From positions 64,001-128,000 of the IMG/VR virus record IMGVR_UViG_3300035670_000018: a stretch of DNA of 64,000 nucleotides; one strand, given 5' to 3'. The notes beneath the pieces are model-generated. The model did not search any database, was not told the DNA's origin, and worked only from the letters and a program-made list of their open reading frames with translations. This document shows, one piece after another, positions 50,160 to 59,429 of the stretch. The first letter of the stretch is position 1. The number at the start of each line of letters is the position of its first letter. The position numbers were made by a program, and so were the translations under genes. The stretch comes from a virus.

Positions 50160-50974
50160 ATGATCAAGACACAGTGGAAAATCAAGATTGGCGACATGAT
50201 CCATGTTCGCACTCATTACAAGTATGGTGTGATGGATAATGTCCATATCAAGTCTGGAAAGGTAGTGCAAAGTGAGCGACATGATCCCGTTGGTACTTTT
50301 CGTTTGTATACAGGTAATCCTCAGTACCCCGTTTCTCTTATCGCAGATGAACGGGTCACTGGCATTAAGCTTCGTGAGGTCGCGTAATGGCTAGTATTCA
50401 TGTACCGTCAGGTAAACTGACATGGGAAGAAAAGTTGGAGATCCGCAAACACGCGCTAGAGTGTGCCGCTAGGACGTATCAAGGACAAGGCGCATTTAAT
50501 GCAGAAAACGTTACCAATCGTGCTGCAATCTTTGAAGACTACTTGATGGGGAAGAATGATGGTTAAGTCTTATGATGTAAGTTTTCATCTTGACGAATCT
50601 CTTGCAGGATGGTATCTTTACTGCTTTGAGGACGATGATGTAGTCCATGAGCAGTTCTTCCGCGACCGCGATGATGCTCACGCTATGGGCCATCGCTTTC
50701 TTGATGGACTGTATGTCAAGGGTTTCCCGATTGAGGAACTGGCATGAGAAAGCAGAGTCTTTGGAATCGATTTCTTAACTGGTACAGTCCAGTTTGGGGT
50801 ATGCTCGTTCCGCTTGTCATCGCAGTAGGCTTTCTTTTTGTTCTAGAATATAAAGCAGATGAACAAAAGCTTGCATTTTCTAATGCCTGTGCTACAATGG
50901 GTGGTGTCGCATTGATTGGACGTAACGGAACAAAAGTTTGCTTCAAGCAGGATGTTGTCCTGTCTGTACACTAA
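50160..50974 (+). CDS. small hypothetical ORFs (50160-50387, ~50387-50560, 50556-50747, 50744-50974)
   Basis: Translationally coupled run after TTGACA-17-TAAGAT at 50125. Confidence 0.55.
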
Positions 50975-50991
50975 ATAAAATACAGTTTAAT

Positions 50992-51074
50992 GGCCACGTA
51001 ACCGATGGCGGCTTCTACCCGCTTAACCGTAACTGGAGTTGAAAATGGGAGTTCGAATCTCTCCGTGGTCGCCA
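50992..51074 (+). tRNA. atypical tRNA-Arg(TCT), D-arm absent/rearranged
   Basis: GGCCACG/CGTGGTC acceptor, GGCGG-CTTCTAC-CCGCT, GGGAG-TTCGAAT-CTCTC, GCCA. Confidence 0.7.
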
Positions 51075-51096
51075 TTTCAAATTATGGAGAAAGTGA

Positions 51097-51363
51097 ATGT
51101 CTGCACCGAAGACCAAGACCAAGTACACTTCTAAGGGTGAGCGTGAAGCGAACCGTAGCTTGTCAAAGGCTATCAAGCGTGATCGCACAGTCATTGAGAA
51201 GTCTCAGATCAAGCAGAAGGCATGGTTGAAGGGACAGAACCCTTGGATCGTCGTGCCGAATGAGAATACAGCCGATACTAAGGCACGGTTTGTTCGCGTT
51301 CGTGCTGAGACTGAGTGGGGTGATCCGCGCAAGGGCTTCATGTTCGGCGCGATGAAGGACTAA
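51097..51363 (+). CDS. basic hypothetical protein
   Basis: GGAG SD; YTSKGER, AWLKGQNPW. Confidence 0.65.
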   Translation: MSAPKTKTKYTSKGEREANRSLSKAIKRDRTVIEKSQIKQKAWLKGQNPWIVVPNENTADTKARFVRVRAETEWGDPRKGFMFGAMKD

Positions 51364-51370
51364 GATTAAC

Positions 51371-51447
51371 GCCCCCTTAGCCCAGCGGTAGGAGGCACCG
51401 GACTTAAAATCCGTACAGGGACAGTTCGAATCTGTCAGGGGGTACCA
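51371..51447 (+). tRNA. tRNA-Leu(TAA), short variable loop
   Basis: Cloverleaf, CT-TAA-AA loop, CCA. Confidence 0.85.
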
Positions 51448-51452
51448 AATTT

Positions 51453-51528
51453 GCATCTGTAGCACAGCGGTTAGTGCTATCGGCTCATAACCGATTGGTC
51501 CTTGGTTCGAATCCAAGCGGATGCACCA
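51453..51528 (+). tRNA. tRNA(CAT), probably Ile2
   Basis: ATCGG-CTCATAA-CCGAT; Ile2-like body. Confidence 0.9.
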
Positions 51529-51533
51529 AATAA

Positions 51534-51623
51534 CGGAGTGAGACTAAGAGTCAGAGAGGACTTATAAACCTTTTGCAGCCGATTACTGCCTTTGAGGTGG
51601 AGCGTTACCACCCACTCCGACCA
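51534..51623 (+). tRNA. atypical tRNA-like RNA with TAT anticodon (Ile)
   Basis: CGGAGTG/CACTCCG-ACCA; CT-TAT-AA; T-stem GGTGG/CCACC with loop AGCGTTA. Confidence 0.55.
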
Positions 51624-51628
51624 ATATT

Positions 51629-51705
51629 GCCCTCGTAGCCCAACTGGCAGAGGCAGCAGATTCAAATCCTGCTCAGTGTAAGTTCGACTCTTACCGAGGG
51701 CACCA
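51629..51705 (+). tRNA. tRNA-Leu(CAA), short variable loop
   Basis: Leu-type D arm, TT-CAA-AT loop, CCA. Confidence 0.8.
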
Positions 51706-51714
51706 AAAAAAAAG

Positions 51715-51755
51715 TTGACAAAAACATAAAATCCAGCTAGGATGTTGTATAAATA
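51715..51755 (+). promoter_or_regulatory. tandem sigma70 and late promoters
   Basis: TTGACA-17-TAGGAT then TATAAATA (51748-51755). Confidence 0.8.
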
Positions 51756-51779
51756 GAATACAGTTTAAGAAAGACGGAA

Positions 51780-51866
51780 ATGAAACCCATTCTACCTCCA
51801 TTTACAATTAATCAAGAAACATGCCAGCCATCATGGGCAGGTGTGATGAGGGGTTCTATGTATTAA
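51780..51866 (+). CDS. putative attenuator leader peptide MKPILPPFTINQETCQPSWAGVMRGSMY
   Basis: 28-codon ORF between promoters and terminator; its 3' end is complementary to the terminator arm. Confidence 0.65.
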   Translation: MKPILPPFTINQETCQPSWAGVMRGSMY

Positions 51867-51890
51867 GTCTTAGTACAGACTTAGTTTCTT

Positions 51891-51929
51891 AGAACCCCGA
51901 AGCCAAAAGTTTCGGGGTTCTTCGTTTTT
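51891..51929 (+). terminator. intrinsic terminator (attenuator)
   Basis: AGAACCCCGAAGC-CAAAA-GTTTCGGGGTTCT-TCGTTTTT. Confidence 0.85.
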
Positions 51930-51932
51930 ATA

Positions 51933-52072
51933 GTTGCGTCCAGTGCATAGCAGATATGCGAAAAAAGAATAAGAAAAGACTTGAAATTGGCTGCGACAAG
52001 CACTATATTAGATATGTAAGAGAGAAAAGAGTTTCCCAGCCGCGCGGGACAAGATGCGGTCGCTGTTTAACA
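51933..52072 (+). promoter_or_regulatory. TATGC triple box, TTGAAA-17-TATATT promoter and boxA-like site
   Basis: CGCTGTTTAACA at 52061-52072 vs rrn boxA TGCTCTTTAACA. Confidence 0.6.
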
Positions 52073-52164
52073 TTGTTAAGTTCCTATGAGTTACCCTTGC
52101 TCACTCAAGGGCGCACTGAGTAGCGAAATATCCAGTGAGGGACTGTGACTCAGCACAGCCTCAC

Positions 52165-52289
52165 ATTCTATCTCTTCAGATATGCACCGGGCATTGTAGC
52201 TACTGCCTAGTGTGGCACAGTCGCGCTGCTTCGGTGGCGTTCAAGATGAACTGTTCGATTCAGTTGGTGCATATCTGAAGTGATAGAAT
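52165..52289 (+). ncRNA. tRNA-like RNA closed by a 24-bp stem
   Basis: ATTCTATCTCTTCAGATATGCACC / GGTGCATATCTGAAGTGATAGAAT; T-arm AACTG-TTCGATT-CAGTT. Confidence 0.65.
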
Positions 52290-52293
52290 ACAT

Positions 52294-52370
52294 TCCTCTC
52301 AAGCCAACTAGGTGGAGGCAACTGACTGTTAATCAGTGTACGACAGGTTCGAATCCTGTGGGGGGAGCCA
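52294..52370 (+). tRNA. tRNA-Asn(GTT)
   Basis: ACTGA-CTGTTAA-TCAGT, GCCA. Confidence 0.92.
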
Positions 52371-52376
52371 ATTCAT

Positions 52377-52463
52377 GGACCAGTCGCCTAGTGGCTATGG
52401 CAGCAGACTCTTAATCTGTCGTGAGAAATCACATCGTGGGTTCGAGTCCCACTTGGTCCTCCA
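52377..52463 (+). tRNA. tRNA-Lys(CTT) with long variable arm
   Basis: GCAGA-CTCTTAA-TCTGT; GTGA-GAAA-TCAC. Confidence 0.85.
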
Positions 52464-52468
52464 ATCAT

Positions 52469-52542
52469 GGCCTATTAGTGAATGGATATCACACCGCTCT
52501 GTCTAAGCGGAGAAGCGAGTTTGAGCCTCGCATAGGTCGCCA
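52469..52542 (+). tRNA. tRNA-Asp(GTC)
   Basis: CCGCT-CTGTCTA-AGCGG, GCCA. Confidence 0.88.
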
Positions 52543-52613
52543 TTTAGTACGCCTGTCCCGCTTTGGGAAGTTGGGTAGGGTTGACGGCACCCTCGCAGTA
52601 CGAAAGCCGTTAT

Positions 52614-52691
52614 CTGAGTGTACGAGAGTCTGGTTACATCCCATAGATTTGGAATCTATGAACGCAGGTTCGAATCCTGCCACTCAGACCA
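52614..52691 (+). tRNA. tRNA-Pro(TGG)
   Basis: ATAGA-TTTGGAA-TCTAT, C1-G72, ACCA. Confidence 0.85.
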
Positions 52692-52696
52692 ATTAT

Positions 52697-52770
52697 ATCA
52701 GTGTAGTGTAACGGTAGCACGGCAGCCTCCAAAACTGCTTGTCAGGGTTCGAATCCTTGCACTGGTGCCA
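52697..52770 (+). tRNA. tRNA-Trp(CCA)
   Basis: CT-CCA-AA loop, GCCA. Confidence 0.92.
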
Positions 52771-52773
52771 GTC

Positions 52774-52884
52774 AGAAAGAGCGGTAGTCGGAGTGCGAAT
52801 CCGATGAGAACATGCCTGTGATCGCACACAGGCATTAAGTATCCTCACCATAGACTTCGGTCAACATAGAGGAACGCTCTTTCT
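52774..52884 (+). ncRNA. unassigned four-way-junction RNA
   Basis: AGAAAGAGCG/CGCTCTTTCT enclosing three hairpins. Confidence 0.55.
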
Positions 52885-52939
52885 ACTTGACTTTACGTGA
52901 TGCCTCGTCTATAATAAGACAACAATCAACGAGGTAACT

Positions 52940-53155
52940 ATGGCAAAGATGACGATTAAGAAAGTGATGGAATTACAAGATCATTTCATCAAAGCTGGTA
53001 TTATGAAAGACCCTAAGTCTTATACCGCAGATGAATTGAAGTATCTTAATCCTGCTATTCCATCTGACTTCATTGATGATTATGTTGATGTTCGTGATGG
53101 TAAGAAGAAAGAAAGCGACTGGCAGCGTATTCCGCTGAAGATCGAAGATTTGTAA
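52940..53155 (+). CDS. hypothetical protein
   Basis: GAGG SD; TTGACT-17-TATAAT at 52887. Confidence 0.7.
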   Translation: MAKMTIKKVMELQDHFIKAGIMKDPKSYTADELKYLNPAIPSDFIDDYVDVRDGKKKESDWQRIPLKIEDL

Positions 53156-53161
53156 TACAAT

Positions 53162-53236
53162 GGGCTTGTAGTATAATGGGTATTATCTCCCGCTTGCACC
53201 GGGAAGAACAGGGTTCGATTCCCTGCTTGTCCACCA
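53162..53236 (+). tRNA. tRNA-Ala(TGC)
   Basis: G3-U70, CT-TGC-AC loop. Confidence 0.88.
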
Positions 53237-53244
53237 AGTTTAAC

Positions 53245-53318
53245 GCCTCTATAGTTCAATGGCAGAACGCCTGTTTTGTAATCAGGATATCAGGGTTCGA
53301 TTCCTTGTCGAGGCACCA
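53245..53318 (+). tRNA. tRNA-Thr(TGT)
   Basis: Cloverleaf, TT-TGT-AA loop. Confidence 0.9.
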
Positions 53319-53320
53319 GT

Positions 53321-53439
53321 TTAGCGTTGTAGGAGCAGAAGTGACCTTGTTGGGATGGTCTGCTGTATGCGGCTCACAGGCGAGTTGAGGGGTTTGATCA
53401 CCCCAAGTCTGGCGAGGGTTCAATTCCCTCCAACGCTAA
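53321..53439 (+). ncRNA. tRNA-like RNA without CCA or clear anticodon arm
   Basis: TTAGCGTTG/CAACGCTAA, T-arm GAGGG-TTCAATT-CCCTC. Confidence 0.55.
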
Positions 53440-53445
53440 TCTAAT

Positions 53446-53516
53446 TTGATCTGGCTACGTAGCAGCAATGTGCGTCATGAATGTCAGACAGTCAACCAAA
53501 TAACTGTGCGGTTGAC
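53446..53516 (+). ncRNA. pseudoknot RNA motif, copy A
   Basis: Covaries with copy B (53613-53698). Confidence 0.6.
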
Positions 53517-53524
53517 ACCAGTTT

Positions 53525-53610
53525 GGGTGAGCGGCAACGACGGTGAGTTGCGGCGGACTGTAAATCCCCTGTCTATGACTTAGAAGGTTCGAATCCTTTC
53601 TCACCCACCA
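53525..53610 (+). tRNA. tRNA-Tyr(GTA)
   Basis: CT-GTA-AA loop, long variable arm, ACCA. Confidence 0.9.
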
Positions 53611-53612
53611 AA

Positions 53613-53698
53613 TTGATTTAGCTACTCACACAGTATGGTTACGCCATATCTTAGAGTCACGAATGCTAAACAACCAGACTTAATACTGTGCTGTCTGG
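53613..53698 (+). ncRNA. pseudoknot RNA motif, copy B
   Basis: TTTAGC/GCTAAA, ACTC/GAGT, CCAGAC/GTCTGG, CACAGTA/TACTGTG. Confidence 0.6.
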
Positions 53699-53708
53699 AT
53701 TATTTTAT

Positions 53709-53794
53709 ACTACCTTATCCAAGTGGTTGAAGGAAGGCGGCCGATAACCGTCTGGCGAAAGCCCGCGTTTGTTCGAATCAAACAGGTAGTACCA
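53709..53794 (+). tRNA. tRNA-Ile(GAT) with C33 and long variable arm
   Basis: GGCGG-CCGATAA-CCGTC; GGC-GAAA-GCC. Confidence 0.8.
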
Positions 53795-53872
53795 TTTCCT
53801 GTGCTTGCAATCTCTCAGTTAAAAGCTGTTGCAAGATTAAGTGTTATGTCTAATATGACATAGACACAGGAT

Positions 53873-54157
53873 CTATTCTCTTGAAGGATAAAGACCTTCA
53901 ACCACCATATGTGGTACAAGTTCGTCATCATGCCATTCGCGTCTGACTTTCTTGCCATAGTCTGGTCCAGAATCAACGAATGGTCTTAAGTCTGGTAGTG
54001 CGAAAGTGTGAATACCATCGCCACCCCAACGGGTGCCCAGTAGAGAGAACAAAGGTTCATGATGTTGAATTTCTAATATCTGCCCGCGACATACCACAGT
54101 GTCTCTTGTGTTCCAAGTAAAAGGCAGATAAACAACTTGACTAATATAAGCTTCCAT
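53873..54157 (-). CDS. phage tail-collar domain protein
   Basis: CRGQIL..LFSLLGTRWGGDG..FALPDLR, GLYPSR; minus-strand CTAAATA and GGAG SD. Confidence 0.8.
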   Translation of the reverse strand: MEAYISQVVYLPFTWNTRDTVVCRGQILEIQHHEPLFSLLGTRWGGDGIHTFALPDLRPFVDSGPDYGKKVRREWHDDELVPHMVVEGLYPSRE

Positions 54158-54197
54158 GGTATACTCCATTATATGAGTTGACATGGTATTTAGTTAT

Positions 54198-54271
54198 TGG
54201 GAGATCATCTAAAGGTAGGATAGCGGTCTTTGAAACCGCCGATCTTGGTTCGATTCCAAGTCTCCCAGCCA
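54198..54271 (+). tRNA. tRNA-Gln(TTG)
   Basis: U1-A72, GCGGT-CTTTGAA-ACCGC. Confidence 0.92.
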
Positions 54272-54323
54272 ATTCGTGCTTGCATAGCATATAGTCAATA
54301 GATGTAGCCGCACTACAATAGAC

Positions 54324-54407
54324 GGACTGGTTACCGTAGTGGCGAACGGCGCTGACTTTTAATCAGCTATGCAAACACCGTGGGTTCGAGTCCCACCCAG
54401 TCCTCCA
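54324..54407 (+). tRNA. tRNA-Lys(TTT) with enlarged variable region
   Basis: GCTGA-CTTTTAA-TCAGC, TCCA. Confidence 0.85.
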
Positions 54408-54412
54408 ATTAT

Positions 54413-54487
54413 GGCGCATTAGTTTAGTGGTCAGAATACTGGGCTTTCAATCCGGGGAGAAGGGTTCAATTCCCTTATGCGCTGCCA
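54413..54487 (+). tRNA. tRNA-Glu(TTC)
   Basis: CT-TTC-AA loop, GCCA. Confidence 0.9.
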
Positions 54488-54492
54488 AATAT

Positions 54493-54570
54493 TGCGGGAT
54501 AGAGCAGTCAGGTCAGCTTGCTAGGTTCATATCCTAGAGGTCGCAGGTTCGAATCCTGCTCCCGCTTCCA
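54493..54570 (+). tRNA. tRNA-Met(CAT), initiator-like
   Basis: 1:72 mismatch, fMet-like D arm GAGC..GCTT. Confidence 0.85.
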
Positions 54571-54571
54571 T

Positions 54572-54646
54572 GCTGCATTAGTCTAGTGGTTAAGACGCAG
54601 GTCTGTGAAACCTGTTACGGCGGTTCGATTCCTCCATGCAGTACCA
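54572..54646 (+). tRNA. tRNA-His(GTG), no G-1, A73
   Basis: CAGGT-CTGTGAA-ACCTG; preceded by T, ends ACCA. Confidence 0.9.
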
Positions 54647-54651
54647 TTTAT

Positions 54652-54725
54652 TGCCCGGTCGTCTAACGGTAGGACGCCAGATTCTGACTCTGGCTATCGT
54701 GGTTCGAATCCATGCTGGGCAGCCA
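54652..54725 (+). tRNA. tRNA-Gln(CTG)
   Basis: CCAGA-TTCTGAC-TCTGG. Confidence 0.92.
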
Positions 54726-54729
54726 ATAT

Positions 54730-54804
54730 GGGGTAATGGTGAAATGGGAACACCGTGGTCTGCAAAACCATTATGAGTAGGTTCGATTCCTACTTACCCC
54801 TCCA
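54730..54804 (+). tRNA. tRNA-Cys(GCA)
   Basis: CT-GCA-AA loop, U73. Confidence 0.92.
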
Positions 54805-54810
54805 AACTAT

Positions 54811-54904
54811 GCATCCGTATCCCCCTTGGCTACGAACCAAGAGTAAGGTAACTGGAGATGGTCAGAGATGACTAATGCAGGTTCGAATCCTGTCGGATGC
54901 TCCA
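54811..54904 (+). tRNA. atypical tRNA-Arg(ACG), D-arm absent/rearranged
   Basis: GCATCCG/CGGATGC, CTTGG-CTACGAA-CCAAG, GCAGG-TTCGAAT-CCTGT, TCCA. Confidence 0.7.
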
Positions 54905-54920
54905 CTAAAGGAAAACAACA

Positions 54921-55283
54921 ATGAAACTATTAATAGCAGCCTTTGCTGCCCTATTTTTAATGACAGCACCCAGTAATGCTACAACAATGGTAGCATCATG
55001 GTATGATTGTGTTAAGCCTGGTGAATGTAGTAAACATAAGATTACTGCAAGCGGGCAAAAATTCAATCCAAATGCTTTAACAGCAGCACACAAGACATTG
55101 CCTTTCGGCACAAGACTGAGAGTTACACACAAAGGAAGATCGGTAATAGTAGTAATTAATGATAGGGGCCCGTTCATTAGAGGCAGACATTTAGACCTAT
55201 CAAGAGCAGCAGCAAGAAAGATTGGCTGCGGTGGAGTTTGCACAGTCAAGGTTGAAATCTTAGGAAAGAAGAAGAAAAGATAG
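54921..55283 (+). CDS. RlpA-like (DPBB) lytic transglycosylase with signal peptide
   Basis: ASWY, TASG, TAAHKTLPFGT, INDRGPF, DLSRAAA. Confidence 0.9.
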   Translation: MKLLIAAFAALFLMTAPSNATTMVASWYDCVKPGECSKHKITASGQKFNPNALTAAHKTLPFGTRLRVTHKGRSVIVVINDRGPFIRGRHLDLSRAAARKIGCGGVCTVKVEILGKKKKR

Positions 55284-55444
55284 ACTTGACAACATGTGGG
55301 ATTTAGTCTAATATATACATCGTGGCGGTAAGTAATGCGTTCCGTCATCCCGCAGCTAGAGGTTTGTGAGTGGACTGTTGACTGGAAACTCTCATTAACA
55401 CAATAGTGGAGGCCGTAACCACTTTAAGAAATCGGAGCGAAATT

Positions 55445-55532
55445 GGATAGGTGGCAGAGTGGTCTATCGCATCGGTCTTGAAAACCGAAGTACCTTCGGG
55501 TACCGTAGGTTCGAATCCTACCCTATCCGCCA
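55445..55532 (+). tRNA. tRNA-Ser(TGA)
   Basis: TCGGT-CTTGAAA-ACCGA, long variable arm. Confidence 0.95.
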
Positions 55533-55549
55533 AACAAGAGGAAGATACA

Positions 55550-55696
55550 ATGAGTAAAGATTGTGGTTGTGGAAGAAGTCCGACTGGTAAGTGTATCGGT
55601 TGGCATGGGTTGACAAATGAACAATACTCTGCTAAACTACAAGAATACGAAAAGAAGAACTTGACGGAATCAGCTCCTCAGTTGCTTCGTGATTGA
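55550..55696 (+). CDS. small CDGSH-like Fe-S/Zn protein
   Basis: CGCGRSPTGKCIGWH; GAGG SD. Confidence 0.6.
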   Translation: MSKDCGCGRSPTGKCIGWHGLTNEQYSAKLQEYEKKNLTESAPQLLRD

Positions 55697-55702
55697 ATAA
55701 AC

Positions 55703-55778
55703 GCTGCCTTGGTATAGCTGGTGCGTACATGCGCCTGAAGAGCGTGGGGACTCTGTTCGATTCAGAGAGGCAGCACCA
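55703..55778 (+). tRNA. tRNA-Phe(GAA)
   Basis: TGCGC-CTGAAGA-GCGTG. Confidence 0.9.
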
Positions 55779-55792
55779 TTTAGAGAGTTAAT

Positions 55793-55948
55793 ATGAAACT
55801 TAAAACTTGGTGGAAACATGCTGTGTTCCATTATGACATTCTAAAGGTGGATGATACTTGTGTTGATTACCTTAAGATGGTAACATTCTGGCATCCCGAA
55901 TACAAAGAGTATCAGACAACAGTAAGTCATGTTTCAAACATAGAATAA
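55793..55948 (+). CDS. hypothetical protein (51 aa)
   Basis: Fills the gap between tRNA elements. Confidence 0.45.
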   Translation: MKLKTWWKHAVFHYDILKVDDTCVDYLKMVTFWHPEYKEYQTTVSHVSNIE

Positions 55949-55949
55949 T

Positions 55950-55988
55950 GCGTCTTGGGAGGTGATGGTCACCTCACCGCTCTCTGAA
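55950..55988 (+). pseudogene. possible 5' half of a tRNA truncated by endonuclease insertion
   Basis: GCGTCTT, D-arm GAGG..TGG..CCTC, CCGCT-CTCTGAA, then late promoter. Confidence 0.45.
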
Positions 55989-56003
55989 ATACTAAATAGT
56001 AGT

Positions 56004-56576
56004 ATGAGATACACCATTTACAAAACGACTAATACAGTCAACGGCAAATACTACATTGGTAAACATCAAACCATTGATCCAATGGATAACTATCTGGGTT
56101 CAGGTAAGGCTATTGCTAATGCCATAAAACTACACGGTAAAGATTCTTTTGTGAAAGAAGTTCTGTTTGATTTTGATACAGAAGAGGAAATGAACAGTAA
56201 AGAGCGTGAACTTATTACTGAAGATATCGTAAACGATCCGATGTCTTACAATTTAGGTGTCGGTGGAGAAGGCGGTCCTCACTTCAGTGGAAGAAAACAT
56301 ACAGACGAAACGCGAAAAAAACAGAAAAACGCAAATACAGGTCGTGTCTATGATTACGATAAGTATAGCGAAGAAAGAAAAAAGACCTTCTTTACTGAAG
56401 GCAATGAATACTGGAAGAAAAGAAAAAAGAACTTTCATACGGAAGAGAGCAAACAAAAGATTCGAGAAAAAAGGTTATTACAACCAACACCGAATTTAGG
56501 GCGCAAAATGTCTGAGGAACAAAAAGAAAAGATTCGTCAGACGCTTCTAAAGCGAAACAAGAATATGCCTGTGTAG
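56004..56576 (+). CDS. GIY-YIG homing endonuclease (SegB-like) with NUMOD3 repeats
   Basis: TIYKTTN..YYIGKH..YLGSG; KHTDETRKK. Confidence 0.9.
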   Translation: MRYTIYKTTNTVNGKYYIGKHQTIDPMDNYLGSGKAIANAIKLHGKDSFVKEVLFDFDTEEEMNSKERELITEDIVNDPMSYNLGVGGEGGPHFSGRKHTDETRKKQKNANTGRVYDYDKYSEERKKTFFTEGNEYWKKRKKNFHTEESKQKIREKRLLQPTPNLGRKMSEEQKEKIRQTLLKRNKNMPV

Positions 56577-56641
56577 TTCATTGATAGAACATGCGTCTCA
56601 TAAGCGCAATGTAGGTGGTTTGATTCCACCCACAGGCACCA
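56567..56641 (+). tRNA. tRNA-Met(CAT), elongator-like
   Basis: TGCG(T)-CTCATAA-(G)CGCA, ACCA; overlaps the endonuclease stop codon. Confidence 0.85.
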
Positions 56642-56653
56642 AATAAATAGAAT

Positions 56654-56856
56654 GCTAACTCCGACGGGAGTTGGCCGAGTGCAAGGAAATGACTGCTCAC
56701 CAGGAGCGGTTAACTTGGCTAGATGGTGTGGTGCCCGTGCGCGACTGACGAGAGTCAGAGGCGTATCGTCTCCGACCAAGAGAATCTAGGCTGACACGTG
56801 GCAGATACAAGGTATCTTGGTCGTGTCTTGTGGGTGTACCCCAGTCCCACCTCACC
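56654..56856 (+). ncRNA. unassigned ~200-nt structured RNA
   Basis: GC-rich, at least seven helices, preceded by ATAAATA. Confidence 0.6.
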
Positions 56857-56865
56857 TTATTAAAT

Positions 56866-56939
56866 GCGGGTTTGTTGTAGTGGTAGCGAACTACCTTGCC
56901 ATGGTAGAAGCGCGGGTTCGATTCCCGCATCCCGCTCCA
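56866..56939 (+). tRNA. tRNA-Gly(GCC)
   Basis: CTACC-TTGCCAT-GGTAG, U73. Confidence 0.9.
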
Positions 56940-56954
56940 ATCATAAATACCAAT

Positions 56955-57309
56955 ATGCTAACTATTCTATTTGTATTTTTGTTGTTGGGAACAGAAGTTC
57001 TTGCTTTCCTTATCATGATAGTGGTGTTAACATATGAAAAGATGTTTCCTAAAGAAGAACAGAAAAACAATATATTCTATGATGATAAGATGATAAATAT
57101 TGATGACCAATCAAGGTCAAACACGAGGTAAGAATATGTTGAACACAGTTGTTGTTTTGGTTCTTGTTGCTGTTGTACTATGGGTCGGTTGGACTCTTTG
57201 GCAGAACGGCTGGGATGTAAAGAAGGCAGGTGCTGCTCTTGTAGCTGCGGCCGCTGCTGCTTGGCTCTGGATATCAGATTCGATTACATCTCTAACCGCA
57301 GGCATGTAA
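56955..57309 (+). CDS. two small membrane proteins (56955-57131, 57136-57309)
   Basis: Hydrophobic helices; late-promoter motifs upstream. Confidence 0.5.
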
Positions 57310-57420
57310 TCTAGAAACCGCTCTTGGCCCGTAGCGGTATAGAAGTCTTCTGGGTAAGTCGTGCAAATGCTAATTCCAAATTATCAGGTTGCAGGACAAG
57401 CTAACGGGCTTCCAATTCAA

Positions 57421-57495
57421 GCTTCTTTCGCCAAATGGGAAGGCATCGGTTTTACACACCGACATGACAAGGTTCGATTCCTTGAAGAAGCACCA
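57421..57495 (+). tRNA. tRNA-Val(TAC)
   Basis: TCGGT-TTTACAC-ACCGA. Confidence 0.9.
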
Positions 57496-57500
57496 TTAAT

Positions 57501-57582
57501 GCGAGTATGGTGAAATGGCAGACACACTTGCCTTAGAAGCAAGCGCGAAAGCATGGGGGTTCAAGTCCCTCTACTCGCACCA
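57501..57582 (+). tRNA. tRNA-Leu(TAG)
   Basis: CT-TAG-AA loop, GC-GAAA-GC variable arm. Confidence 0.92.
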
Positions 57583-57588
57583 ATCACT

Positions 57589-57662
57589 GCCTCTATAGTT
57601 CAAAGGCAGAACACGGCTTTGGTAAAGCCGAAACACAGGATCGTTACCTGTTAGAGGCACCA
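57589..57662 (+). tRNA. tRNA-Thr(GGT), T-loop ATCGTTA
   Basis: CGGCT-TTGGTAA-AGCCG. Confidence 0.85.
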
Positions 57663-57677
57663 TTTAGGAACTTAACA

Positions 57678-58175
57678 ATGATCAGAAAGAATATGGATTT
57701 AGACGAAGTTCGTGCATTCATCCAAGCACAATCTCCCGAAACAAAGATTTATCTAGGTGGCGACTCTGAACGCTTTCAGTTGAATGGTGTATGGATGGCT
57801 GACTACATCAACGTTGTCGTTGTTCATAAGAACGGCAAGAACGGTTGTCGTGTGTTCGGTTCTGTTGTGCGTGAGCGTGACTATGACCAGCAGAAGGACA
57901 AGCCACGTATGCGTCTCATGAATGAAGTAATGAAGACTGCACAGCTTTACCTTGATCTGGAAGAAGCTATCGGTGAACGTGACTTTGAAATTCATCTGGA
58001 CATCAATCCTGACTTGAAACACGGCTCATCTTGTGTTATAAATGAAGCTGTTGGTTACATTCGTGGTATGTGTAATGTGGTACCGCTAGTGAAGCCAAAT
58101 GCTTGGGCAGCATCTTACTGTGCTGACAGGTACAAGGACGCTATTCAACATATTCCACAAGTGAAGGTAGGATAA
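57678..58175 (+). CDS. RNase H-like YkuK/DUF458 family protein
   Basis: IYLGGDS, RLMNEV, EIHLDIN, KPNAWAASYCAD. Confidence 0.8.
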   Translation: MIRKNMDLDEVRAFIQAQSPETKIYLGGDSERFQLNGVWMADYINVVVVHKNGKNGCRVFGSVVRERDYDQQKDKPRMRLMNEVMKTAQLYLDLEEAIGERDFEIHLDINPDLKHGSSCVINEAVGYIRGMCNVVPLVKPNAWAASYCADRYKDAIQHIPQVKVG

Positions 58176-58179
58176 AATT

Positions 58180-58629
58180 ATGACTAAGTTTTTTGTTATG
58201 TTGGCAGTGATGGCTGCTGCAATCTTTATGCTTGCTACTGGCACTAGAGCAGGAGTTGAACCTCTTGGTGAGCATGAAGTGATTATTAGGATTGACAAGT
58301 CCGATCAGAAGATGTACGTAGAAACGCCTACTGATTATTTTGAGTGGGATGTTTCTACTGGTCGTAAGGGTTATCGTACTCCTGTTGGCGTGTTTCAGCC
58401 CTATCTTTTGAGACCGATGCATTACTCAAGCAAGTATAATAACGCGCCGATGCCTCATTCAATTTTCTTTCATGGTGGTTATGCAATTCATGCGACAACA
58501 GAAGTAAAGAAGCTTGGTCAACCCGCATCACATGGATGTATTCGTCTTAGCCCTCAGAATGCTCGTTGGTTGTATCGCATCGTAAACGAGTACGGCAAGT
58601 ATAATACATATATAGAGATTACAGAATAA
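58180..58629 (+). CDS. L,D-transpeptidase (YkuD family) with signal peptide
   Basis: VSTG..TP, GYAIH..LGQPASHGCIRL. Confidence 0.9.
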   Translation: MTKFFVMLAVMAAAIFMLATGTRAGVEPLGEHEVIIRIDKSDQKMYVETPTDYFEWDVSTGRKGYRTPVGVFQPYLLRPMHYSSKYNNAPMPHSIFFHGGYAIHATTEVKKLGQPASHGCIRLSPQNARWLYRIVNEYGKYNTYIEITE

Positions 58630-58633
58630 TATA

Positions 58634-58724
58634 GGAAGGATGGCCGAGAGGCCGAAGGCACCTCACTGCTAACGAGGCGTACCCTAATCAGGTACCGTGG
58701 GTTCGAATCCCACTCCTTCCGCCA
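58634..58724 (+). tRNA. tRNA-Ser(GCT)
   Basis: CT-GCT-AA loop, long variable arm, GCCA. Confidence 0.95.
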
Positions 58725-58739
58725 AATTATGGATTAGTT

Positions 58740-59429
58740 ATGGAATACGATGGCATTTTCTTTATCAATCATGCGCTGAAGGTAAATCAACTATCAGTGT
58801 ATTCAAATCAGGAGCGTTTCGAGCAAACACTTGAAACGCTCTCTTCTATTAACAAGTATTGTCCCAATAACAAAGTGTTCATCTTTGATTCGTCTCCTGA
58901 AAGACCTGATGTAGAATATTTTGAGGAACTTAGCAACAGAGGCTCAATCGTTTTCTACTCTGGTGAAGAACCGGATGTAAAACGATTTTCTCAACACGGA
59001 CAACGAAGTATTGCCGAATGCATCTCATTCATATACTTTCTAAGCTGGTTTCAAAAACAAGACTTTAAGGCCAAGCGCATCTATAAGCTGTCTGGTAGAT
59101 ACAGACTGAATGACAATTTCATTGTTGATGATGATCGGTATAAGGATGCATTTGTCTTTGCTAATGCTCTAGACTCATGGATGCCAAAGCACATGCAAGA
59201 GAGTATTGGAATTGATAAACTATTCAGACTTAGACTCTGGCATATGGACTACAATCTGTTAGGACTATTCTATATACAGCTTTCAAAAATCCTTCAAGAC
59301 TGTGCCAAATATCACATAGATGTTGAGCATAGCTATTATAAAAACTTGCATACATATAAGACAATTGAACTTGACAAAATTGGTGTATGTGGTAATATAG
59401 CACCAAGTGGAGAATATATTGATGAGTAA
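58740..59429 (+). CDS. hypothetical protein (glycosylation-island type)
   Basis: ERFEQTLETL, YKLSGRY. Confidence 0.6.
   Translation: MEYDGIFFINHALKVNQLSVYSNQERFEQTLETLSSINKYCPNNKVFIFDSSPERPDVEYFEELSNRGSIVFYSGEEPDVKRFSQHGQRSIAECISFIYFLSWFQKQDFKAKRIYKLSGRYRLNDNFIVDDDRYKDAFVFANALDSWMPKHMQESIGIDKLFRLRLWHMDYNLLGLFYIQLSKILQDCAKYHIDVEHSYYKNLHTYKTIELDKIGVCGNIAPSGEYIDE

Follow-up and report, generated by a model that had tools for sequence, protein, structure and literature searches.

The window analysed here is a stretch of 64,000 nucleotides (positions 64,001 to 128,000) of a 167,363-bp IMG/VR virus record with a G+C content of 40%, and all coordinates below are those of the window. The DNA polymerase of the virus is ~50% identical to gp43 of T4-like Synechococcus phages. 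ARAGORN called 28 tRNA genes, among them tRNA-Leu(CAA) at 51629-51705 and, on the + strand, tRNA-Asn(GTT) at 52294-52370, which opens a main array of 24 tRNAs ending at 58724. Between these two genes lies a cassette in which a short leader ORF and a terminator together take up ~215 nt. Arg tRNAs were left uncalled by ARAGORN at 51371-51705 and 54811-54904; in relatives the corresponding positions are occupied by Arg(TCT) and Arg(ACG). The tRNA region also holds a manA RNA motif (RF01745, Rfam) at 56657-56858, which scored 61.6 bits against a gathering score of 55.2.

The cassette is read on the + strand. A sigma70-type promoter (TTGACA-17-TAGGAT, 51715-51743, 10/12 matches), whose TTGACA box is placed alike in most of the variants described below, is followed by a match to a late-type promoter motif, TATAAATA, at 51748-51755. 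We take TATAAATA to be a late promoter from knowledge of T4-like phages; in the variants the motif reads (T/C)TAAATAG, with CTAAATA in some relatives, and a conserved transcript start comes after it. The leader ORF (51780-51866) consists of 28 codons and a TAA stop and encodes the peptide MKPILPPFTINQETCQPSWAGVMRGSMY. It contains a C-rich stretch in codons 5-7 (candidate segment 1, 51794-51800), a hairpin P1 (51820-51845, from folding and RNAalifold) and, in the last codons (Arg-Gly-Ser-Met), segment 2, GGGGTTCTA, at 51850-51858. An inner hairpin with the stop codon in its 5' arm (51862-51885) leads to segment 3, TAGAACCCC (51890-51898), whose partner is either segment 2 or segment 4, the 3' arm of the terminator hairpin. 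The intrinsic terminator (51891-51929) is made up of a 13-bp hairpin (51891-51921) and a U-tract (51922-51929). Beyond it, a separate promoter (TTGAAA-17-TATATT, 51981-52009) serves the downstream unit, whose first products are a structured RNA with a tRNA-like tip and then tRNA-Asn (52015-52370). An earlier, sequence-only reading of this DNA had listed a sigma70 promoter, a late promoter, the ORF, a terminator and the tRNA array in this order, with a further promoter near 51981, and all of these elements were found where it had placed them.

The downstream promoter is preceded by a conserved box, TGC-N7-GCAT-N7-ATGC, and both box and promoter (51930-52009) are kept in relatives. The structured RNA occupies 52015-52293, between this second promoter and tRNA-Asn, and is conserved as well. 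Its long terminal stem (~52165-52290), which shows compensatory changes when compared to relatives, encloses a UUCG hairpin and the tRNA-like tip with a T-arm AACUG-UUCGAUU-CAGUU; in one relative (L007) ARAGORN called an odd tRNA at the matching place. The region 52015-52293 had no match in Rfam. Our scan detected no + strand terminators between 51930 and 52294.

The sequence-only reading had rested on a complementarity between the end of the ORF and the 5' arm of the terminator. This complementarity is exact over 9 nt (GGGGTTCTA and TAGAACCCC). Between the two strands lies the inner hairpin that had been proposed to bridge them, TAAGTCT (51864-70) and AGACTTA (51877-83); its pairing extends further than had been described, to 9 bp, and begins at the stop codon. 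The terminator hairpin comprises 13 pairs, 7 of them G-C, and is followed by TCGTTTTT; such a G+C-rich hairpin directly before a U-tract is kept in all variants. The region folds with z = -4.7 relative to shuffled sequences. When the 15 terminator-like hairpins of the 167-kb genome were searched for an upstream complement to the 5' arm longer than 5 nt, only the leader's own hairpin had one (9 nt), while none was found for the other 14 terminators, and the complementarity therefore goes beyond chance. The U-tract ends 63 nt past the stop codon. The trp leader has a similar distance between stop codon and terminator.

Pattern scans of IMG/VR and JGI metagenome contigs recovered the cassette in 45 related contigs of uncultured phages, representing 23 distinct variants. 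Except for the first scan, which used the exact terminator, the patterns left segment 2 unspecified, and segment 3 was mostly free. Several pattern matches were set aside as unrelated (L010, L035, L040, L051-L057 and L058-L060), some of them being coding sequences that share the searched motif. When the region was compared to 50,697 GenBank phage records by megablast and blastn, the leader was unmatched and only tRNAs gave matches. In every contig with enough flanking sequence the cassette is located between tRNA-Leu(CAA) and tRNA-Asn(GTT), at a distance of 50-1400 nt from the former and 300-1000 nt from the latter in the relatives. A sigma70-type promoter (TTGAnn-17-TATATT) always lies 3' of the terminator in the relatives, and in nearly all contigs the conserved structured RNA follows this second promoter, with tRNA-Asn after it.

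The two sides of the cassette differ in how freely they take up other DNA. In L003 (9363-9545), as well as in L004 and L006, tRNA-Leu(CAA) is separated from the leader promoter by an inserted small Cys-rich ORF (MTYWEIYYGKCKEKPNGSPECHAYCKLCNG...), whose 3' end overlaps the -35 and -10 boxes of the leader; in other relatives up to 1.4 kb is inserted upstream of the leader. Judging from these insertions the upstream region is plastic, while the junction from leader to array is not. Variants of the L016/L017/L039 type have, ~10-300 nt past the terminator, a differing promoter (TTGCAA-17-TATATT) and a short ORF whose Shine-Dalgarno sequence is good, and the structured RNA and tRNA-Asn are placed after that short ORF.

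Frame 0 of the leader ORF is open in all 23 variants, with a length of 25-28 codons, and the +1 and +2 frames are closed by stops in 22 of the 22 variants checked (a set without L049). At least five indels separate the variants, every one a multiple of three. Synonymous changes are frequent and concern His (CAT/CAC), Pro (CCA/CCG/CCC), Thr (ACA/ACG), Phe, Glu, Arg, Ala, Gly and Val codons. The leader of the window departs from the family at codons 3-7, where small insertions that total three bases give PILPP in place of HYCP before the frame of the family resumes. Values of pN/pS between variants ranged from 0.13 to 0.94. By this measure the residues appear to be under weak to moderate constraint, and frame and length under firm constraint, as expected for a leader peptide. 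The comparison of variants indicates that the leader ORF bears a coding signature: the open frame, the in-frame indels and the many synonymous changes argue that it is translated, which the sequence-only reading had needed and which the sequence signature favours.

The Shine-Dalgarno sequence is poor in most variants, as had been cautioned: GGA stands 1 nt from the AUG, whereas the norm for the genes of this phage is AGGA or GGAG 7-8 nt upstream. A few variants have a better one, GAGGA at 4 nt (L024, L049). An argument from rare codons fails for this phage: of the codons that had been singled out in the leader, CTA, ACA and TCA are common (RSCU 1.03, 2.11 and 1.80) and only AGG is rare (RSCU 0.30). 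The leader codons are mostly the common ones of the phage, AGG and CCC (RSCU 0.17) being the only exceptions. Three leader peptides scanned against Pfam and PHROG matched no family. The idea that the small ORF encodes a type I toxin was rejected, as MKPILPPFTINQETCQPSWAGVMRGSMY and its relatives are polar throughout and lack a hydrophobic stretch.

To follow the pairing of segments 2 and 3 through the relatives, we used alignment A3 (23 sequences) together with folding of single sequences. MAFFT misregisters segment 3 of L009, L041 and the L033-type and the inner hairpin of L049, and per-sequence folding was used there. The sequence-only reading had suggested looking for the same layout, with compensatory changes, ahead of the tRNA arrays of related phages, and had made its case dependent on conservation of the complementarity. 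Both were found in the 23 variants: ~95% of the cells in segment 2:3 are paired and 4 of the 9 pairs have changed on both sides, counts that reflect few independent events among related sequences and whose significance is overstated by shuffle controls. The terminator hairpin likewise has 4 pairs with compensatory changes. RNAalifold recovered the antiterminator, the inner hairpin and P1 unprompted; one pair of P1 is C-G in 9 variants and U-A in 9. The stem of the inner hairpin is kept across the variants and its loops vary.

Single variants illustrate how the three strands changed together. In L018 segments 2, 3 and 4 were altered jointly (GAGGUUCUA / UAGAACCUC / GAGGUUCU), segment 2 from GGG to GGA, which is synonymous, segment 3 from C to U and segment 4 from G to A. 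Apart from this compensated change the third codon positions of segment 2 are invariant, and about half of the other synonymous sites vary. In the most divergent variant, L049, GGGGUUUCGUGU pairs with ACACGAAGCCCC over 12 bp, and the inner hairpin (UUGUAGG/CCUACAA) has a wholly different sequence with the stop codon still inside. A clade of six variants (L007, L011, L020, L024, L009 and L041) converted the outer pair of segment 2:3 from A-U to G-C. These six variants have also lost the sixth pair of the helix: U-A has become G.A or A.A through a change of Ser to Ala or Thr, and such changes resemble substitutions at the protein level. In the L039 type segment 3 went from G to A; segment 4 changed to match, and segment 2 did not. 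The terminator 3' arm of L016, L017 and L039 carries a C to U change, which yields G.U in L016 and L017 and a restored A-U in L039.

The RNA up to the terminator loop was predicted to fold as antiterminator, with 8-13 bp, in 23 of 23 variants, and the pair probabilities of its core were 0.7-1.0 in the 20 variants computed. Among the variants folded in full, with segment 4 included, the minimum-energy fold switched to the terminator in every case except one. The antiterminator module amounts to -14 to -25 kcal/mol and the terminator to -20 to -23 kcal/mol across all variants; in predicted stability the two folds are therefore nearly equal, as in known switches. In most of the 22 prefixes folded, which represent the RNA before segment 3 exists, the G-run of segment 2 finds a partner in the C-run of the Cys/Pro codons (codons 5-7), forming a weak helix; once segment 3 is made, the antiterminator beats this candidate segment 1:2 in the minimum-energy fold. 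In the finished RNA the terminator outcompetes segment 2:3, and selection on the latter helix therefore makes sense mainly during transcription.

Taken together, we consider the cassette to be a ribosome-dependent transcription attenuator, with a probability of about 0.65. The architecture of such a putative attenuator is well supported by the comparative evidence. Trp/his-type attenuation is the textbook model behind the proposed ribosome logic. The sigma70-type and late-type promoters would drive a short RNA that encodes the leader peptide of 25-28 residues. A long interrupted hairpin, segment 2:3 with the inner hairpin inside it, would take its 5' half from the last five codons, the stop codon and 20-30 nt beyond, and would consume the 5' arm of the strong terminator. 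As segment 2 consists of the last five codons and the stop codon lies inside the antiterminator, a ribosome at the stop would open the 5' half and free segment 3. If it stands there while the polymerase copies segments 3 and 4, segment 2 and the inner hairpin would be melted or masked, segment 3 would pair with segment 4, and transcription would end at 51922-51929. If the ribosome has stalled upstream, or possibly is absent, segment 2 would capture segment 3 first; with the antiterminator formed, the polymerase would go on to transcribe the promoter region, then the structured tRNA-like RNA and then the tRNA array. From the geometry and the trp/his model, a stall anywhere before about codon 19 would leave segment 2 free and result in readthrough.

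By analogy with these leaders it is probably the position of the ribosome that decides the outcome, and stalls at many different codons probably count. P1 might serve as a pause hairpin. According to the folding model the untranslated default may be readthrough, segment 1:2 being weak. The purpose of such a device would presumably be a higher output of tRNAs when decoding fails. As the array has its own conserved promoter 60 nt past the terminator, readthrough would only add to array expression. Of the attenuation originally proposed, the architecture has held, with its coding signature and its conserved, compensated pairing; an argument from rare codons fails, and readthrough would not by itself switch on the array.

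What the leader might sense is a separate question. The window peptide indeed contains 18 distinct amino acids and lacks Asp and His, as had been counted from the sequence. Its commonest residues, Pro (four) and Met (three), are unclustered, and no cluster of control codons was seen. Leader peptides contain 14-20 distinct amino acids per 25-28 residues (mean 17.1), compared to about 14 expected at random and an average of 13.3-13.8 in same-length windows of the phage's own proteins, in which 18 or more occur with a probability of <1.5%. The 26-mer of L011 holds all 20 amino acids (P = 3e-5 under an i.i.d. model). In each of 5000 trials the real variants exceeded column-shuffled chimeras in diversity, a test that is weakened by the relatedness of the variants. 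The match between leader codons and downstream tRNAs (coverage 0.89 strict and 0.93 relaxed, versus 0.78 and 0.89 for phage genes) was not significant, and this test is uninformative because the array reads nearly everything. The amino acids absent from leaders showed no correspondence to the tRNAs absent from arrays.

We tentatively suggest that the leader is a sensor of overall decoding capacity, in which nearly any tRNA shortage would stall the ribosome before segment 2; this is possible, and we would not bet on it. As almost all amino acids are represented in it by one or two codons, the leader might respond to shortages caused by anticodon nucleases, by other tRNA-targeting defences or by a poor supply of the phage's own tRNAs. 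Early and late transcripts would then pass the terminator into the tRNA-mimic RNA and the 24-tRNA array, which covers nearly all 20 amino acids. It is the geometry, combined with the high diversity of the peptide, that suggests the sensing of almost any tRNA loss.

The same observations could be accommodated by an ordinary small gene whose peptide matters, whose plain terminator also insulates the next promoter, and in which the complementarity reflects mRNA stability or processing, or chance. The unit has its own promoters and terminator, and as the second promoter follows at once, the cassette resembles a self-contained unit. Some of the residues are conserved, and replacements stay among similar residues (Ser/Ala/Thr, Met/Val) even at sites where they break the helix. 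For a functional peptide, however, the pN/pS values indicate weak constraint, and the N-terminus in the window was rewritten with the frame restored. In L049 the C-terminal residues changed non-conservatively (GGFVL versus RGSMY), yet the RNA pairing was kept by compensation. Also the defeat of the segment 2:3 helix in the finished RNA, which confines sensible selection mainly to transcription, and the unmatched Pfam and PHROG families speak against a plain gene, and we judge this explanation unlikely.

Alternatively, the cassette could be a peptide-specific attenuator, in which some signal makes the conserved residues halt the ribosome at the stop codon or close to it, similar to TnaC or SecM, and the dwell on segment 2 sets termination. 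Asn11, Gln12, Pro17, Trp20, Ala21 and Gly26 are invariant in 22 variants, and L049 keeps all of them except Asn11-Gln12. In these 22 variants the codons AAT-CAA and CCA are invariant even at their synonymous sites, and the stop codon is embedded in the antiterminator. The invariant codons may instead reflect a constraint on the RNA (P1) rather than on the peptide. The last three residues, on the other hand, differ among the variants (SMY, AVH, TV, FVL, SMI), and no known arrest motif was recognised in the leader peptides; an arrest of this kind seems quite improbable to us. Still, the invariant residues leave room for a peptide-specific effect, since a purely generic sensor presumably would not need them.

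A small regulatory RNA of ~170 nt (hairpin, A/U-rich spacer and 3' terminator), with the ORF incidental or a second function, is highly improbable: the 3' architecture (hairpin, UUUCUU and terminator with U-tail) recalls that of many base-pairing sRNAs and the 3' half of the cassette RNA is far better conserved than the 5' half, but the ORF stays in frame through at least five indels with synonymous changes, Rfam gave no family match, no target is known and this reading would not account for the joint covariation among segments 2, 3 and 4.

To our knowledge, hardly anything is known about how the expression of phage tRNA arrays is controlled, and in the full texts searched no published description of a leader of this kind ahead of phage tRNA genes turned up. 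The arrays have come to be viewed as a counter to tRNA-cleaving host defences (PMC10264068, PMC11464382). If true, a translated leader gating tRNA genes would extend to them a feedback control known until now from amino-acid, synthetase and resistance genes, and the sensing of decoding capacity, if true, would be a feedback loop that supplies replacement tRNAs on demand. A leader with so many different amino acids (all 20 within the 26 residues of one variant) would, if this diversity is selected, represent a new design principle for leaders.

An Rfam 15 scan of 50900-59000 (E up to 1) found no leader family across 51715-51929, and no match to a T-box. With neither an Rfam match nor a control-codon run, and with a different cargo, the cassette belongs to no curated leader family. 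Among known systems, the vmlR leader of B. subtilis (PMC9226507), the whiB7 uORF of mycobacteria (10.1101/2023.06.02.543512) and the topAI uORF of E. coli (PMC12121999) are described as elements in which the translation state of the uORF decides premature termination. In these systems stalling from several causes, beyond one amino acid, is reported to open expression (PMC9226507, 10.1101/2023.06.02.543512, PMC12121999). Like vmlR and whiB7, the phage cassette combines a uORF with predicted conditional premature termination ahead of downstream genes, and it is untied to one amino acid. By contrast, the three bacterial elements control resistance or stress genes, some of them via Rho or translation, whereas here a phage uses an intrinsic terminator ahead of tRNA genes. 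The cassette also differs from the vmlR/whiB7 type in the separate promoter between terminator and downstream genes. T-box leaders of aminoacyl-tRNA synthetase and amino-acid genes offer a functional analogy only: there the choice between terminator and antiterminator is set by the state of the tRNA pool, but T-boxes recognise uncharged tRNA by direct binding and, unlike the cassette described here, lack a leader peptide.

In layout the cassette resembles the leaders of enterobacterial amino-acid operons (trpL, hisL, pheL, thrL, leuL and ilv). These also have a short translated ORF upstream of an intrinsic terminator and an antiterminator formed from the 3' end of the ORF, which excludes the terminator by sharing one strand with it. 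Stop codon and terminator are similarly spaced, a hairpin lies in or near the ORF, and the cassette has a candidate counterpart of their segment 1:2. In the phage cassette, however, segment 1:2 is weak, and the run of codons for a single amino acid is missing, its place being taken by near-maximal amino-acid diversity. The cassette is moreover phage-encoded, with an early-type and a late-type promoter, and instead of biosynthetic genes it precedes a promoter, a structured RNA and tRNA genes.
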